This document shows positions 4,619-32,000 of a stretch of DNA of 32,000 nucleotides, piece after piece. Origin of the DNA: Candidatus Saccharimonadota bacterium (GTDB lineage: Bacteria > Patescibacteriota > Gracilibacteria > BD1-5 > UBA2023); contig JAXLZO010000001.1 of the NCBI GenBank assembly GCA_046350815.1, forward strand, positions 1,200,001 to 1,232,000, written 5' to 3'. The notes under the pieces were generated by a model that had not been told where the DNA came from, made no database searches, and saw only the letters and a list, made by a program, of their open reading frames with translations. The translations under genes and the position numbers were made by a program. How positions within the stretch are numbered: position 1 is the first letter of the stretch; each line of letters opens with the position of its first letter.

Positions 4619-5986
4619 ATGTTTATTTTTTATCGATTCGTACTCAGCATCATTCTCTTTATGGGAATAGGATTTCAGAATAATGTTTTGTTTGCAGCAG
4701 AAACATGTAGTGTAAGTAATCAAGCAAGTCCAGAATTTCGAGAATATCAGAACAAACTCAATTCAGAGCTTGGAAAAATCCGTGGTGAGATGGCAGCAAA
4801 AACCTGCTGAGCCACACCATTTTCCAATACCAGCATTGAACGTGAAAAATCAAAATGAACTGATCTCATGTACTCGATCATCAATGAAACACGAGATCTC
4901 AATACACTTCAATCATCGTTTCGATTCAACATATCTAGACTCCTCTCTTCAGATGATCTTCCACTTTTACGAAGAGAGCGAAATACACTCACGAACCAAG
5001 CAAAAGCAATCGAGCAGACTGTAGATGAAATGTTTGGACGATGTGCTGGGGACCTCCCCTATAAGAACGGAACACTGCGATCAAATCTCTCACAAATATA
5101 TGCTGATCATGTCCGATTTACTGCCTATTTCGAATCAGTTGCATCTGGATGGAATTGACTCTCGCTACCATCTATTACTCCAAAAGTGATAGGTGACAAT
5201 CAAGATTGGCTCCCAAATATTACCAGCAGCTACAAACCAGAATGACTCAAACCATGCTACGAAGAAGGAGCTACCATGATGGGAACATGGGAGAGAATTG
5301 TCAAAATATGGACGGGAGGAGCAAGTATATCAAAATGAATCCAAGCATGGCAGGATGCTTACTCACTTCTCATTGGAACAGATCCAAACTACAATGCAAA
5401 ACAAAAGAAACTTCTCTCAAGTTATCTCTCAGAAAATGGTATCACGGGTGATGCACGAGATAATATTATGAGCAAGTTAGACTGTAAACAAAAAGGTGGA
5501 AGTAATTGTGGATGACCAGTGAGTTTTGGTGGTATTGATGGTATTGTGCAAATGAAAAATGAAGCAATAGGTCTCTATACTGATATGAGATCAACTATGG
5601 TAAACTTCCGAAAGATGACCAAAGAAACTCAGACTCAATACGCCAATGCTCTCAAATCATACCAATGAGAAGGTGGGGTCGCAGGTGCATTCAAGAATTT
5701 GAAAAATATCATTATACCAGTACCTGATGTTGATACACAATCCATCATTACCGATAGTAACTATTCACAAGATTTGGAATATATCCATCTCACAACACAG
5801 AATCTCTATACAACCCTCCGGTCAAAAAGTAGTTCTGATTTTACCGACCAAGCATCAATCGATAATCTCAAAGCGATAAACCAAGAAGTCTATATGATCA
5901 ATGAAAAACTGAAGTGAATGGAGAAGCTATCTATCTATATGTGCAAAAGCCAAGATACAGCACAAGCATGATTGTGTATCAAATAA
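4619..5986 (+). CDS. hypothetical secreted protein (455 aa)
   Basis: ATG at 4619, TAA at 5984-5986. Track ORFs 4619-4810, 4868-5158 and 5699-5917 share one frame and are joined only by TGA. Signal-peptide-like N-terminus MFIFYRFVLSIILFMGIGFQNNVLFAAE. Several paired Cys residues. No family recognised. Confidence 0.65.
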
Positions 5987-23010: not shown

Positions 23011-24687
23011 TTAGAGTTGGAGTTTACGAACAAAATACACAATTCAAGCGATAAAAGCCAAGCAAATAGCTGAGAAGAGAGCTATAAACACACCACGATT
23101 CGACTCGATAAGACGATCATCTTTGTCATCACAGACATTTCATATTCCATCTTTATCGGTATCTTTCTGATCATTATTAGAGATCTTTGGGCAATTATCT
23201 TGAGCATTGTAGATGTTGTCATGATCATTGTCTTCACACATATCACCGATACCATCATTATTTGCATCTCTCTGATCACTGTTCTTGATGGTTGGACAGT
23301 TGTCTCTCCAGCCTTCGATCGTATCCCCATCACTATCATCACACATATCGCCTATTTTGTTCTTGTCTTGATCCTTCTGATCTGGATTTTTGATTGCTGG
23401 ACAGTTATCTGCTACATCACCTATGCTATCCTGATCGGTGTCTTTCTGATCTGGATTTGCAATCTTTGGAGCATTATCTTGGGCATCGAGAATACCATCG
23501 TTATCACTGTCATGAGTTTTGAGATATTTTTCTTTGTCATCACATACATCTCCGATACCATTTTGATCAAGATCCAGCTGATCTGGATCAAATAGTGCGC
23601 ATCTATCACATACATCTCCGATTCCATCGTTATCACTATCCTTTTGATCTGGGTTCGAAGTATGAATGCAATTATCAACACCATCTGGAACTCCATCACG
23701 ATCGGTATCAAATTCACATGCATCACCGATATTGTTTGCATTTTGATCTTTTTGATCTCGATTTTTGACTATTGGACAATTGTCACGATCTCAAACAATC
23801 ATATCACCATCATCGTCGCTACATACATCACCAATGCCATCAAAATTTCGATCCTTCTGATCTTTATTTGCCATCGAAGGACAGTTATCACGCATATCGA
23901 TGATTCCATCACTATCAGTATCACGACCAGTAGTTGGAATAGGAAGAAATTCAAGAGGAACAGCACTATCAGTCGGAACATCAAGATTCATATCTTGGCT
24001 TATACCCGATTGTTTGCTCGTAAGTGCGAATAATTCATCATCGCTACATATCCAATTACGATAAGCAAGAATGGGATTTTTTTGCTGAGGTTTGATAATA
24101 TAAATATCATTATTTCGCTGATCAAATCGAAGTGTTTTTATAGATACGCTTGTTTGTGGTCAAACCTCTTTTGCAAAGGAGATACGAAGTGAAGAAAATG
24201 AATAATTCGAAAGATCATTTTGACGAACCTCTATGAATACCCTATCATCTGATGCTATCTCAAATTTCATTGCTTTACTTGTAGCAATATCAATAACAGG
24301 GATGAAGGTTCTTTTTTCCAGCTTATTCTCAAAAGAGAGCGTAATATCAAATCAAGATGGAGCATCTACGGGATCAATGCGCAATTGTGTTTCACGAAGA
24401 TCATCAATAAGTGCAGATTTTTGGTCAATTACATTCTTAGCAAGAGAGCTTGAGAGAGTATAGTCATAACTTTTTCGAACAATACTCGATTTGAGTCATG
24501 ATGGTATAATAATGCCGTCTTGCACAAAGAAAATATTGTCTCATGCTCAAACAGAAAATATGTTACCTACATTATCAGATGGAACTTCAGCGTATTCCGT
24601 AAAACAACGACTATCAAGTGCTGATGCTGTGAATGAATATCCAAGCAATACAAATACCGCAAGAGAAAGAGGAAAGTATCGATTCAT
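23011..24687 (-). CDS. secreted, C-terminally anchored thrombospondin type-3 repeat (Ca-binding) protein (558 aa)
   Basis: ATG at 24687 with signal peptide MNRYFPLSLAVFVLLGYSFTASA. A ~230-aa N-terminal domain is followed by about 9 copies of DNCPxxxNxDQxDxDxDGIGDxCD. The C-terminal hydrophobic helix is GVFIALFSAICLAFIAGIVYFV. TAA at 23011-23013, 11 nt before the DUF2339 start. Confidence 0.85.
23105..23930 (-). repeat. degenerate tandem coding repeats (TSP type-3 Asp-rich calcium-binding units)
   Basis: The GAT/GAC-rich periodic sequence also generates long spurious ORFs in other frames and on the other strand (track ORFs 23082-23342, 23200-23595, 23421-23741, 23644-24033, 23799-23984). Confidence 0.8.
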
Positions 24688-24874: not shown

Positions 24875-24949
24875 TGGGGATTCGCCAAGTGGTAAGGCAG
24901 CGGACTTTGACTCCGCCATGCGTAGGTTCGAATCCTACATCCCCAGCCA
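24875..24949 (+). tRNA. tRNA-Gln (anticodon UUG), CCA encoded
   Basis: Manual cloverleaf fold. Acceptor TGGGGAT/ATCCCCA with the U1-A72 pair typical of bacterial tRNA-Gln; D arm GCC-AAGTGGTAA-GGC; anticodon arm GCGGA-CTTTGAC-TCCGC; variable loop CATGC; T arm GTAGG-TTCGAAT-CCTAC; discriminator G followed by CCA. Confidence 0.9.
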
Positions 24950-28681: not shown

Positions 28682-29932
28682 TTATGAAATACTGATTTTC
28701 CCTGTTACTGTTTGATAGATGAGACTGGTCTGGTATTCTTCGATGAGAGCGATTTCTTGTTCTATTTTTGCTATGGCTGAGTCGATTTGAGATAATTGTT
28801 GCTCGATATACTGAATAATTTTATTCTGGGTAAAATTATTTGGTAATGGAATCACTATATTTCATACAGTGTCGATATTTAGATTGAGTTGTGTTCATTC
28901 TTTTCAAATTCAAGAGTAGGCTAATCCTGAATATAAGATATAAAATAAATACATCTTATTTATTCTCTCATTTAGCTTTCAAAAAGTTACAAATCAATCG
29001 TGAATGCAACATTTTATGTTTGCAATTATTGGTTTTCATACGGATCAAGCTATACTGAGAAAAAGGTCTCAGGGATATTGTTTTACGCTCAAAGATGCTC
29101 ATAATTCGGACAACTGTTGCTCTGTAGTCTCAAGATACATATTGCTCGCACTTACATCTGATATTCTAACCCAAGCAAATTCTCCATTATCATCAAAATA
29201 TTTTTTATCATCTATTGGACGTGGCGAGGCTCATCTTTTTATATTTGAAAGCATTTTTAATCTCCTTACTTCCCAATCCTCTGGAATTTCTCCAATCCAC
29301 GGGATTCCACTCTCTTTCATCTTTGCATTTGGATCAATTCACTTCGTGACAGCACGATGGATAATAGATTGTTTTTGTTCTTTGAGAAGCTCGATGAGTT
29401 TTCTTTTATTTTCGACGAGTTTCTTGATCTCAGTCGTTTTTTGGTCGAGGAAGTTAGCGATGGCGGTTTGAGTGGAGAGAGGAGGGAGAGGGATTTGAAA
29501 ATTTTGTAGCATTGGGAGCCTCAGGCTGTCCACTGTAGATTTTGCAGATATACGCAAGACTTCATTATAAAAATTCGATTTCATGAAGTAATAAAGATAT
29601 TTTCATGTTACTTTCCGAAAATCGGTAAAGGCATATACTCTTTGATGAAACGCAAATTTTCATTGAAAATAATGAAATACTCGTCATGCTCAAACTCAAT
29701 CTCATGCAGTCAACACAGCCTCGCAATCCATAGAATATGAATCCAAACTTTCAATATTTTCTGATCTTACAAAAAATGGATAGATTCCATCGGGCAAGTT
29801 ATCTTGAGTATCTTTATCTCAAGTTTGAATTCTAGCCAGAAATTTCAATCGTCTCACTTCCCAATCCTCAGGAATCTCTCAGATCCAAGGGATATTTGAT
29901 TGTTTTAGGGATGTTGTAGGACTTTGAGTCAT
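28682..29932 (-). CDS. hsdS: type I restriction-modification S (specificity) subunit, two TRDs (416 aa)
   Basis: ATG at 29932; TAA at 28682-28684, 10 nt before the hsdR start. The block IPWIGEIPEDWEVRRLK is duplicated at the start of each TRD. Central conserved region (PLPPLSTQTAIANFLDQKTTEIKKLVENKRKLIELLKEQKQSIIHRAVTKG) and C-terminal conserved region (IIQYIEQQLSQIDSAIAKIEQEIALIEEYQTSLIYQTVTGKI). Confidence 0.9.
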
Positions 29933-30067
29933 AGGAATTATTTTTTGGTGTCAAGGGATTTTAGTTGACTTTTAAGTCTTTTTCGAGTATATTATCTGTG
30001 TCTCAGATACCTCTTGTTGTATCAGGAGCCATCAGAACCGTCTCACTTGTTGGGGCGGTTCCCGCTT

Positions 30068-30553
30068 TTATCAGGATATATCTATCTTATAATGCTCATA
30101 CTCTTTGAGCATTTTTTGTTTGTATCTATTCGAATCTATAGGAAATGCAGAAATAAGTACGATATAATCTTTTCTCTGAGACAAGACTACCAGGTAATCA
30201 AAATTTTCATCTGAAATATAGTATTTTTGTTCATTATTTTTTGCTCTTTGCCAAACTTTCAAGGTGTCTACGCTGTCTATATAGTGTCGTGGGAATCGTA
30301 TTCTTTTAGCTCTTGGAAGACAAAATTCTCGATCCTCAGATCATAGTTTTTCGATCGTTATAATATGGTGAAATCACCATTCGTACATTATGCCATCAAG
30401 ATCCAAATATGGTTTTTTCTTGAGATTTACAGGAAAATCAAGGAAAATTGCCGATTTATTTCAGAGGGTAGATCGAAATATAGGATAAATCCTCCCGAGA
30501 AAATTATGGAGTCACTCAGTATCGAGTTTTTGTTCAAGATTTGGCAATGGCAT
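30068..30553 (-). CDS. hypothetical protein (161 aa) embedded in the type I R-M operon
   Basis: ATG at 30553, 2 nt after the DUF3800 stop. Five in-frame TGA codons; ends ...KIDIS-G(TGA)-TAA at 30068-30070. Track ORF 30071-30262 is its C-terminal part. No family recognised. Confidence 0.6.
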
Positions 30554-30555
30554 AA

Positions 30556-31278
30556 TTAACAGCTTATATTTTGAGGTTTCCAGAAAAAGAGATTAAATTT
30601 CTTTTCTCATCTTAGTGTACTTTTTCTGAGTGAATACTTACTTCGTTCTTCAATCCGTTTTATAATTTCTATTTTCGCGGAACTGGTTTCAAGGTCTCGA
30701 TTAACATAGGCAAGTGCTCACGCAAATATATCAGTCAGTTGCATTATTTCAACCTCGTGAGATCGTATGAGTTGTATTTTCTTTATGATCCTATGATTAA
30801 AGTCATACATCGAATTTATAAGAACATCATTGAGTTTTTGTATTTTTTCTCAACCATTTGTATCTTTTATGTCTATATAGAAATTATAGCTATATTCAGG
30901 ATCAATAATAGATAAAAGTTGCCAGTACATCTTATAGTACCAATCATTATATGTTTGATTGAATTGAGCGTGGTCGAGAGTGTCTTTATCTGTTATGACT
31001 AAGGCTCGAAGTACAATATCATCATCATCAAAAAAATAGTCTACCAAATCCAGATAAAAATCTTTTTTTGAATCCGATATTTTTGTCCATTTAACTTCTT
31101 GAAATTCTGATATTCAATGCTTTTTCTTGATTTCTTTTATCCGTGTAAAGATTTCAAATCTCTTATCTTGAGGCACTTGTACACCTGCAAGAACCATTAC
31201 TTTTTTATTTTGTCCATTGAGAGAATTATCATTCTCAAGGTGACAGCTTTCATCACAATAAAAATTGTATGTTGTCAT
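30556..31278 (-). CDS. DUF3800-like protein (240 aa) embedded in the type I R-M operon
   Basis: ATG at 31278, 4 nt after the hsdM TAA. N-terminus MTTYNFYCDESCHLEND (the xxxDES start characteristic of DUF3800), a mid-region acidic block, and C-terminal LTDIFAGALAY. TAA at 30556-30558. Track ORF 30850-31047 is an internal piece. Confidence 0.6.
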
Positions 31279-31282
31279 AGAT

Positions 31283-32000
31283 TTATTGGATTATCGCAGA
31301 TAAAACCCCATCCGTTTCTGCTTCGAGAGCGAGTATATCTCTCGTGATGTCTTCGAGACTTCGAGGTGGAGTGTATTCGTAGAAGTATTTATTGAAGTTG
31401 ATCTCATATCCTACTTTTTTCTCCTTCTCGCTGATCCAAGCATCAGGAGCAAATGGGAGGACTTCTCGTGCGAAGTATTCCTGTATATCTTCTTTGAGTG
31501 GGATATTTTCCTTATCTCTCAGGTCTGCATCTGGTTCTGGTTTTCCTTTCTTTGTGATGATATTTCCATTCTCATCCCTCTTTGGTCGTTCGACGATGAT
31601 CTGAGTGTAGCCGAAGTCTTCATTATCAAATATCTTTGAGTATTCTGTTTCCTTGAATCCATCAAAAAGCTCATAAATTTTCTGGATTCCTGCATCTTTT
31701 ATCTCATTTCTCTTGCTTCCGAGACTCTTCGTCATCTTCGTGAAGAACTCACTACTTGTAGCATTGATGAGTTGGATTTTACCTTTCTTGTGAGTAGGTT
31801 TTCGGTTCGTCATTACCCAGATATATGTCCCAATTCCAGTATTATAGAAGAGTTCTTTTGGGAGAGCAATGATGGCTTCGAGATAGTCATTTTCGATTAT
31901 ATGTTTACGAATCTCACTCTCTCCGCTTCCTGCATCTCCTGTGAAGAGAGCAGAACCATTGTGTACTGAGGCGATACGAGTCCCGAGTGGTGTATCGTGT
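31283..32000 (-). CDS. hsdM: type I restriction-modification M (methyltransferase) subunit, C-terminal part; the gene continues beyond the right edge
   Basis: Translation ...NGSALFTGDAGSGESEIRKHIIENDYLEAIIALPKELFYNTGIGTYIWVMTNRKP...KGKIQLINAT...FGYTQIIVERP... is the typical HsdM C-terminal region. TAA at 31283-31285. The frame is open to 32000. Confidence 0.88.
   Translation of the reverse strand, partial: HDTPLGTRIASVHNGSALFTGDAGSGESEIRKHIIENDYLEAIIALPKELFYNTGIGTYIWVMTNRKPTHKKGKIQLINATSSEFFTKMTKSLGSKRNEIKDAGIQKIYELFDGFKETEYSKIFDNEDFGYTQIIVERPKRDENGNIITKKGKPEPDADLRDKENIPLKEDIQEYFAREVLPFAPDAWISEKEKKVGYEINFNKYFYEYTPPRSLEDITRDILALEAETDGVLSAIIQ

Follow-up and report, generated by a model that had tools for sequence, protein, structure and literature searches.

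What does a pair of tightly coupled genes do inside a type I restriction-modification (R-M) operon, and does it depend on the enzyme among whose genes it is found? The question is raised by a stretch of 32,000 nucleotides (nt) of Candidatus Saccharimonadota bacterium DNA (assembly GCA_046350815.1, contig JAXLZO010000001.1, positions 1,200,001 to 1,232,000; hereafter the window), on whose minus strand, translated with genetic code table 25 (TGA read as glycine), two open reading frames (ORFs) of 240 and 161 amino acids (aa) stand between hsdM and hsdS-hsdR. These genes are here called A (g1, of the RlfA or PDC-M04A type) and B (g2, of the RlfB or PDC-M04B type). An earlier note on this DNA, whose coordinates and spacings are correct throughout, had described them as a DUF3800-like gene and an orphan, and had suggested an effector guarded by the R-M complex in the manner of PrrC; that interpretation is partly supported by the analysis given here. 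Its account did not include a third component, a small antisense RNA encoded at the 3' end of B, which is present in every copy examined. We propose, with a probability of roughly 0.45, that the locus is the Gracilibacteria copy of a mobile, autonomous, three-part conflict or defence cassette that has lodged in a type I R-M operon.

The pair is a recoded member of a catalogued candidate family. When PADLOC is applied to the recoded proteins, a check that the earlier note had recommended, A matches PDLC04353 (PDC-M04A; E-value (E) 1.6e-86, residues 1-236 of 240) and B matches PDLC04357 (PDC-M04B; E 4.7e-28), with ten M04B models matching in all. The PDC-M systems are multi-gene phage-defence candidates that a 'guilt-by-embedding' screen of BREX, DISARM and type I R-M loci brought to light (Payne, Hughes, Fineran and Jackson, 2024; bioRxiv 10.1101/2024.01.29.577857), and Table S8 of the same work lists the cassette FAM_00014>>FAM_00043 with 679 instances and the entry 'Assign as candidate PDC-M04'. 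The window pair shares with this cassette the matches of both proteins, the gene order A>>B and the common strand; it differs in being recoded with TGA as glycine, and would therefore escape standard gene calling. In the accessible parts of the text and tables of Payne et al., PDC-M04 is catalogued as two proteins, with no RNA, no fold for B and no link to the rlfAB genes of phage P1.

That link emerges from the phage genomes. In a tblastn search, A is 49% identical to P1 RlfA (RapA in phage P7) with 98% of A covered, and hhalign aligns B with P1 RlfB (RapB in P7) at a probability of 100 (E 5.7e-40). The two P1 genes overlap by 1 nt, stop over start, and the same antisense RNA is found at the end of rlfB (L089 4648-4725, rlfB ending at 4654; the handles L001-L167 denote related loci, L089 being phage P1 and L105-L165 viral contigs from IMG/VR). 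Unlike in the window, the P1 pair comes after repL, outside any R-M operon and far from any type I system. PDC-M04 and RlfAB are one and the same family. Among E. coli genomes, 117 match at least 80% of a P1 query made up of rlfA, rlfB and the RNA, with more matching places on plasmids (123) than on chromosomes (61). Relative to the records consulted, what is new here is the equivalence of PDC-M04 and P1 rlfAB, the folds, the asymmetric evolution of A and B, and the antisense RNA with its phage orphans. The literature searched holds no validated function for either protein, in agreement with the earlier note.

To follow the linkage of the two genes, each GTDB species was represented by a single genome and scanned for two invariant motifs of A; at least 515 species were marked, and the best 80 loci were analysed. 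The scan relied on A, as the B alignment has no sufficiently conserved stretch, and genes in the related loci are simple ORF calls. In 80 of these 80 loci, found via A alone, a B homologue follows directly on the same strand. B starts at -17 to +14 nt from the A stop, and the commonest junction is a 4-nt ATGA overlap. The proposal that A and B are co-translated as a pair is borne out by these junctions.

The third component occupies the gap between B and hsdS. The length that had been given for this gap, 135 nt, is correct; its treatment as an empty stretch is not, since a small RNA gene lies there, on the other strand. Among Gracilibacteria-type loci, the DNA just past the B stop is better conserved than B itself, even where B has been replaced or where a different gene lies downstream. 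Read along the plus strand, the element consists of a promoter, about 7 nt, a conserved hairpin, a short linker, a GC-rich hairpin and a U tract laid over the last B codons; the 3' tail of the RNA overlaps these codons and the stop of B, the overlap across loci being typically 5-40 nt. RNAalifold predicts two helices from eight sequences, with 20 pairs of which 7 show compensatory changes. A covariance model built from these eight sequences (R1) gave 58 full-length matches in many phyla, all at the 3' end of B and one of them in P1. A second model (R2), built from 54 matches, has exactly one full-length match in each of 92 loci (92/92, E<=4.5e-7, such E-values being rough owing to a shortened calibration) and no further match at E<=0.1 in the 1.23 Mb searched. 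The RNA is antisense at the end of B in 91 of the 92. The exception is the complete genome of Chakrabartyella piscis (L072 11433-11507), where it is encoded on the A-B strand about 210 nt downstream.

The pattern of substitutions identifies the molecule on which selection acts. Across the 92-sequence alignment, 96.3% of cells pair, as against 77% in shuffled alignments and about 45% with slid partners, and double changes occur at 15 of 20 pairs, in 322 cells compared with 81 in shuffles; these figures are somewhat inflated, the alignment being model-fitted, whereas the one-per-locus position is independent of the fitting. Helix 2 comprises 12 pairs, 10 of them with compensatory changes. G-U cells outnumber A-C cells by 182 to 16, and a U tract is present on the RNA strand only. 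Given this covariation, the G-U excess and the strand-specific U tract, it is as RNA, and from the strand opposite to A-B, that the structure is under selection. In the 135-nt gap of the window, the fold z-score is -2.65 on that strand and an unremarkable -1.5 on the coding strand. A promoter with at least 9 of 12 consensus positions lies at a fixed distance from the RNA in 61 of 92 loci, compared with 1.5% of random controls; its hexamers are conserved and keep their distance from the RNA start, and the spacer between them is variable. Outside Gracilibacteria the consensus reads CUCAUCUACC-AUGU-GUAGAAGGAGU-(linker)-terminator-AGCUUUUU, and the 5' hairpin, which takes the form CUCAUCUACC-AUGU-GUAGAAGGAG in other phyla, is a 25-nt sequence that is almost invariant across phyla.

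Two other interpretations of the element were rejected: a small ORF behind an AAGGAG motif, as the alignment has no conserved start codon, and an integron attC-like site, as conserved core sites are missing and the G-U bias points to RNA. Rfam 15, whose DUF3800 motifs include DUF3800-I and DUF3800-IX (RF02969, RF02968), has no match to the RNA in the window or in 28 related loci, whether at the gathering threshold or at E<=1-10, and the annotations consulted do not list the RNA either. Exact-pattern scans of JGI metagenomes and IMG/VR for the Gracilibacteria form of the RNA found nothing. In one relative (L009 10724-11296), the B frame lacks its stop and runs for 28 codons more through the RNA gene; this extension resembles a frame-continued translation of the window's intergenic DNA, and most likely reflects the DNA conservation of the RNA gene and not a real extension of the protein.

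Such an element could serve as a mere transcriptional insulator, a convergent promoter and terminator beside a working system that consists of the two proteins alone. It lies exactly at the cassette boundary, its phage copies (see below) work in other contexts, and the A-B mRNA showed no trans target: pairing of the 5' part of the RNA with the ribosome-binding regions of A or B has duplex energies equal to those of shuffled controls, at scattered sites. An insulator would nevertheless need neither an almost invariant 25-nt hairpin across phyla nor a conserved promoter at a fixed distance. Moreover, the sense strand is not terminated. It carries no U tract after the hairpin, and A-B transcripts can therefore read into hsdS and hsdR, carrying a perfect 75-nt complement of the RNA. 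Dedicated structured RNAs also accompany other DUF3800 genes (PMC5737381). We regard the insulator explanation as unlikely, though one to be reckoned with, and take the RNA as a component of the cassette in what follows.

Turning to the proteins, the assignment of A to DUF3800 holds: it scores 50.1 bits against the Pfam family (PF12686), for which the gathering cut-off is 21. More than 5,600 relatives of A are found at E<=1e-3, and identity stays at about 55% across distant phyla. Residues invariant in the family include YCDESCH (7-13), E61, K63, W64, D84, R91, Q108, D136, D139, D183 and R194, among others; Q180, in the motif Q180xxD183, is near-invariant. According to published remarks, DUF3800 folds like RNase H and is marked by two motifs, DE in the N-terminal and QxxD in the C-terminal part (PMC7736814, PMC10910872); A has both (D9-E10 and Q180..D183). 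An AlphaFold2 model is at hand for a 96%-identical homologue in which the four TGA positions are read as tryptophan (predicted local distance difference test, pLDDT, 88). Its best matches among PDB structures in Foldseek are archaeal RNase HII and human RNase H2A (3p83_E, 2.4e-6; 1eke; 3puf), with E from 2e-6 to 1e-4, probability 1.0 and template-modelling (TM) scores of 0.46-0.52. D9, E10, D136 and D183 are invariant and fall on the elements expected for a DEDD tetrad, a candidate assignment made by conservation and secondary-structure order. From this model, A is likely a metal-dependent nuclease of the RNase HII/H2 type and the likely effector of the system.

B is no orphan, as had been thought, in that an exhaustive search yields 209 cluster representatives at E<=1e-3; among the matches listed, the relatives are mostly single-domain proteins of about 160 aa, others being shorter. 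No Pfam or NCBIfam family covers it. Within the family H63 is invariant, and P4, F61, R75, R81, W101 and L124 are near-invariant. The AlphaFold2 model of B is of high confidence (pLDDT 96.1; predicted TM score 0.89), and a Foldseek search of it against the PDB found nothing significant (best E 0.22, TM<=0.25), the partial, weak matches being RelE/HigB, Pur-alpha and RPA (E>=0.2). In BFVD the model has a single match, an uncharacterised phage homologue. As modelled, B is a well-folded protein whose predicted fold has no solved relative. The homology and structure searches that the earlier note had called for thus give a structural relative for A, through its model, and none in the PDB for B; sequence searches of both proteins against PDB chains gave no matches. 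A candidate HEPN motif in B (R-x5-H, R84..H90) was rejected, as H90 varies within the family and the fold is rich in beta structure.

The two genes evolve at different rates. Over the 80 pairs, A has a median pairwise identity of 56% and B one of 38%, and the two distance matrices correlate (r=0.54, Mantel p=0.001). The contrast is sharpest between the window and its relative L003: the DNA of hsdM, A and hsdR is 85-89% identical and the A proteins are 97% identical, whereas the B proteins are 44% identical. DNA similarity breaks 20 nt into B, leaving B residues 7-58 almost unrelated (window 30533-30317 against L003 8021-8241), in a region adjacent to the variable hsdS. Further pairs are likewise asymmetric (e.g., 85% for A and 38% for B in one, 83% and 40% in another). 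The break in L003 suggests replacement of a B allele or very fast divergence. On the strength of these identities, B appears to behave as a rapidly diversifying or exchangeable subunit and A as a constrained enzyme.

The genomic context bears on whether the cassette depends on its host operon. With profiles iterated from the window's own Hsd proteins, a procedure that makes the count a lower bound, type I R-M genes were detected no more than four genes away in 43 of 80 loci and not in the other 37. Where they occur, the gene orders include M-S-A-B-R and R-M-S-A-B, with M-A-B-S-R in Gracilibacteria-type loci. The neighbours in the other 37 loci are HATPase_c_4, ResIII, GmrSD_N, N6_N4_Mtase and RhuM genes, integrases and ordinary genes. 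Close relatives of the window pair adjoin a convergent type III-like res/mod pair, and one shares an island with DUF2326, CTD12 and a recombinase. An association with defence loci had been predicted and is found, both next to type I R-M genes and, elsewhere, beside type III-like R-M, AbiE, Schlafen/AlbA2 and GmrSD genes. The cassette is strongly drawn to R-M operons and defence islands and is not tied to type I enzymes; its spread over nearly all bacterial phyla at about 55% identity fits horizontal transfer, as expected. Other insertions were seen in such operons. In L093 (365-11600), an hsd operon contains four embedded units, namely DUF4917, SLFN_AlbA_2, A-B with its RNA, and a 200-aa gene with AbiEii, and is a defence island inside one operon. 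In L003 (9935-10717; also L004-L008), an additional 260-aa DUF6602 gene stands between hsdS and hsdR, where the window has only a 10-nt gap, which indicates that the operon takes different embedded genes at different junctions.

These data speak to the PrrC-like scheme of the earlier note, in which A-B would be a latent suicide or abortive-infection effector that is held inactive by contact with the R-M enzyme and fires when that enzyme is attacked by an anti-restriction protein of a phage. The pair does lie inside the hsd operon in the window and its relatives, type I genes are close by in the 43 loci just mentioned, and embedded genes can be defence systems, as TgvAB and PrrC illustrate. However, nearly half of the copies have no type I neighbours, the insertion point within hsd operons varies over the three orders given above, and P1 carries the cassette far from any type I system, all of which weakens the idea; close relatives, in addition, adjoin type III-like enzymes or lie in islands free of R-M genes. 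Scans with Pfam, NCBIfam, PADLOC and PHROGs detect no ABC-ATPase or anticodon-nuclease domain in A or B, in contrast to PrrC, and the cassette carries its own putative RNA regulator. PrrC is, moreover, almost exclusively embedded (bioRxiv 10.1101/2024.01.29.577857), whereas A-B is near type I genes in 43 of 80 loci. Guarding by the R-M enzyme is accordingly highly improbable. The same three observations, i.e., the 37 loci, the P1 copy and the varied hsd junctions, argue for the autonomy of the proposed cassette.

A comparison with other systems shows where the cassette stands. In type III toxin-antitoxin systems, the antitoxin RNA is a series of tandem repeats upstream of the toxin gene and on the same strand; in the case of ToxIN, phages are known to escape by means of look-alike RNAs (pseudo-ToxI). 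The present cassette resembles ToxIN in joining a predicted nuclease to a small structured RNA that is presumably made constitutively, and the orphan RNAs of viral contigs (see below) recall the pseudo-ToxI escape. It differs in that its RNA is single-copy, downstream and antisense (91/92 loci), in having two proteins, and in the fold of A, which is RNase H-like and not ToxN/Kid-like. Type I toxin-antitoxin systems with a 3'-overlapping antisense RNA, such as bsrG/SR4, have small hydrophobic membrane peptides as toxins. They share with the cassette a convergent, cis-encoded RNA whose 3' end lies over that of the protein-coding transcript, whereas A (240 aa) and B (161 aa) are predicted to be soluble, both models being globular, and the overlap of the RNA with the ORF is short. 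Closer at hand, eleven mutually unrelated RNA motifs, DUF3800-I to -XI, have been found beside DUF3800 genes (Weinberg et al., 2017; PMC5737381). They too are small and structured, occur in either orientation and in several cases have an intrinsic terminator after them; the antisense RNA looks like a further example, distinct from those motifs that Rfam 15 holds. Retrons of type VII combine a reverse transcriptase with DUF3800, as a fusion or as a pair (Mestre et al., 2020; PMC7736814), and among the DUF3800 proteins linked to CRISPR are the TPR-DUF3800 proteins of Cas12a2/a3 and Csx32 of Cas13. In these conflict systems, as in the cassette, an RNase H-like DUF3800 domain stands beside a dedicated nucleic-acid component; the cassette has no reverse transcriptase, Cas protein or TPR domain, its only neighbours in the window being hsdM and hsdS/hsdR, and RlfA-type proteins keep the QxxD motif that is absent from retron-linked ones (PMC7736814). 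Rfam finds no retron RNA in the window. With PrrC-EcoprrI the pair shares its embedding in a type I hsd operon. Overall, the logic of the cassette is like that of type I and type III toxin-antitoxin loci and of the DUF3800-RNA associations, and the cassette lacks defining features of each.

The toxin-antitoxin likeness leads to a further possibility, namely that of a selfish addiction module, acting between proteins or between RNA and protein, which would stabilise the mobile DNA that hosts it and have no direct anti-phage role. A coupled two-gene operon with a convergent antisense RNA, as in type I toxin-antitoxin loci, would suit such a module, as would the spread over nearly all bacterial phyla at about 55% identity and the presence on P1-type plasmids and in 117 E. 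coli genomes. Yet three of 80 loci keep an intact A next to a broken B (L014 has an insertion, L020 a stop and L058 a truncation), rlfAB has been lost from P1-like plasmids without apparent harm, knock-down of rlfA or rlfB by CRISPR interference (CRISPRi) is tolerated in P1, and the neighbours are enriched for defence and not for plasmid maintenance genes. The three loci weaken a simple scheme with A as toxin and B as antitoxin, in a sample that is small and partly composed of metagenome-assembled genomes (MAGs). Addiction is, on balance, decidedly unlikely as the whole role of the cassette.

Copies of the RNA also exist apart from A-B. An IMG/VR search for the exact 24-nt hairpin core returned 61 viral contigs, a sample selected by that very match, and all 61 match the model over its full length. 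A-B accompanies the RNA in 7 of the 61; in 48, neither A nor B is found despite room for them. These orphan RNAs are mostly co-directional with their neighbours, which are regulator, HNH, ParB-like or methylase genes upstream and HNH, small-terminase or large-terminase genes downstream. In E. coli, the chromosomal matches listed (8/8) cover the RNA portion of the P1 query only, at 83-86% identity; the two that were viewed lie in unannotated stretches, one at the edge of a prophage-like element (L166 4001-4071) and the other beside an insertion sequence (IS) element (L167 4001-4071). Phage copies may be decoys of the regulatory RNA.

It is also conceivable that A-B serves the life cycle of a phage or mobile element, in replication, late transcription or RNA processing, with the RNA as a phage leader or terminator and the chromosomal copies as cargo or remnants. 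The name that the genes bear in P1, 'replication-linked function', implies such a role, rlfAB follows repL and has a C1 operator upstream, the PHROG label of the B family is 'replication protein', and the RNA of many viral contigs lies between regulator or HNH genes and terminase genes; RNase H-like enzymes do take part in replication. Nevertheless, the P1 record, which gives rlfA and rlfB a possible link to lytic replication, does so on position alone, and CRISPRi in P1 found both genes non-essential for lytic growth (PMC10695390). Of the 80 genomic copies, most are found in hsd operons or in islands that lack phage structural or replication genes, and only 7 of 61 RNA-carrying viral contigs have A-B. 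A life-cycle function is therefore improbable, and P1 can be counted for a conflict cassette instead, since the pair is non-essential and lies in a replaceable cargo region, P1-like plasmids often carrying other cargo in its place (PMC6906374).

Several observations nonetheless weigh against an RNA-controlled defence cassette. No test of PDC-M04 is found in the accessible parts of Payne et al. (2024) or in later papers that test other PDCs. The catalytic tetrad of A is putative, having been placed by conservation and secondary-structure order, and the loci with damaged B speak against A being lethal without it. A C1 operator upstream of rlfA would be unusual for a defence gene that is expressed in lysogeny. 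Inside the A-B mRNA, no site that could pair with the 5' part of the RNA is conserved. Lastly, 54 of 61 viral contigs carry the RNA hairpin without A-B, so that the RNA is not specific to the cassette; a fixed-distance promoter is present in just 9 of the 61 viral copies, and its usual lack, together with a site before packaging genes, points the same way. The RNA may be a generic phage element that the cassette has co-opted.

The features on which this account is based are collected in the table.

Table. Features of the hsd region of the window; coordinates count from the first nucleotide of the window, and R1 and R2 are the covariance models of the small RNA.
Feature	Coordinates	Strand	Evidence
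hsdM, 3' part (type I R-M methyltransferase; runs off the window end)	31283..32000	-	Pfam N6_Mtase E 7e-20
Gene A (g1), 240-aa DUF3800 protein, 4 in-frame TGA=Gly	30556..31278	-	Pfam DUF3800 6.5e-13; PDC-M04A 1.6e-86
Gene B (g2), 161-aa partner protein, 5 TGA=Gly	30068..30553	-	PDC-M04B 4.7e-28
Sigma-70-type promoter of the small RNA, TTGACT-17 nt-TATATT	29965..29993	+	10/12 consensus matches
Small RNA gene, ~75 nt, antisense and convergent to B	29998..30075	+	R1 89.6 bits, R2 65.9 bits, both full length
Conserved 5' hairpin of the small RNA, CUCAGAUAC...GUAUCAGGAG	30003..30028	+	Helix 1: 8 pairs, 5 with compensatory changes, 97.8% paired
Intrinsic terminator of the small RNA, stem 30035-30061 then CCGCUUUUAU	30035..30071	+	11 pairs, 6 G-C
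hsdS, 416 aa, two target-recognition domains	28682..29932	-	Pfam Methylase_S 2.8e-33, two stretches
hsdR, 986 aa	25711..28671	-	Pfam HSDR_N, SWI2_SNF2, ResIII, T1R_D3-like

Pfam domains agree with the identities that had been given to hsdM, hsdS and hsdR, and the window's hsdM is 87-89% identical in DNA to the full-length hsdM of L003. The genes are closely packed: the hsdM stop codon (31285-31283) lies 4 nt before A, A and B are 2 nt apart, and the B stop is 135 nt from the hsdS start (29932), which is followed after hsdS by 10 nt before hsdR. The reading of UGA as glycine is upheld, as the frames are intact in table 25 and those of A and B are both broken by stops under table 11; the last sense codon of B is itself one of its five TGA codons. 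The sequence of protein B recurs without a difference in a recorded 'Candidatus Gracilibacteria bacterium' MAG, which agrees with the recoding. Public gene calls for close relatives (P0002, P0003, P0155, P0156) read TGA as tryptophan (table 4) at sites where the family consensus has glycine, e.g., G187 of A, which points to systematic W-for-G errors in the database sequences of recoded lineages.

Beyond the operon, a tRNA gene lies about 0.8 kb past the end of hsdR (24875-24946, plus strand; Rfam 65 bits). Integration is common at tRNA genes, so that the hsd region may belong to an island. A 558-aa protein (23011-24687, minus strand), read from its translation alone, has many tandem Asp-rich repeats (DxDxDGxxDxxDNCPxxxNxDQxD) that resemble thrombospondin type 3 calcium-binding repeats, and a hydrophobic C-terminal anchor.

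How could the parts of the proposed cassette work together? A would be the nuclease effector, RNase H2-like and under very strong purifying selection. B would be made in step with A and probably complexed with it, as a specificity, sensor or regulatory subunit, a role suggested by its fast evolution (about twice that of A) and its apparent allele swaps. The RNA, presumably made constitutively from its own near-consensus promoter, would check or tune the system, and it is a likelier regulator than the R-M enzyme. It might act as a type I antitoxin does and pair with the 3' end of a read-through A-B transcript; alternatively, its almost invariant 5' hairpin might bind A or B, as a type III antitoxin would. 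That no conserved site for the hairpin exists in the A-B message mildly favours binding to protein or a duplex in cis. If the RNA were lost or disturbed during infection, the nuclease would be released on phage or cell nucleic acids. A role of this kind in defence is in line with the neighbours of the cassette, which include type I and type III-like R-M, AbiEii, SLFN_AlbA_2, DUF4917, GmrSD_N and HATPase_c_4 genes.

A bolder reading joins all of these elements: the 5' hairpin would bind an RNase H2-like A-B complex and silence or license it, the orphan RNAs of phages and of prophage or island borders in E. coli would be decoys that keep the system off, and the eleven DUF3800 RNA motifs would be the cognate RNAs of sister systems. 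Taken as a whole this is speculative and rather unlikely. If it were true, it would amount to a new type of RNA-controlled nuclease system and a widespread arms race by RNA mimicry, of which, to our knowledge, ToxIN is the single known case.

For the family, the analysis joins three records, i.e., PDC-M04 in PADLOC, rlfA/rlfB of P1 and the DUF3800 genes with companion RNAs, and offers a hypothesis for the long-unexplained association of DUF3800 with structured RNAs. Being a three-part unit, the cassette may lose a needed regulator when the two ORFs are cloned alone, which could lead to false negatives or to toxic clones; a tractable model exists in P1 and the 117 E. coli genomes, where the full cassette is present. 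For Gracilibacteria and other lineages in which TGA is recoded, defence annotation needs prior recoding.

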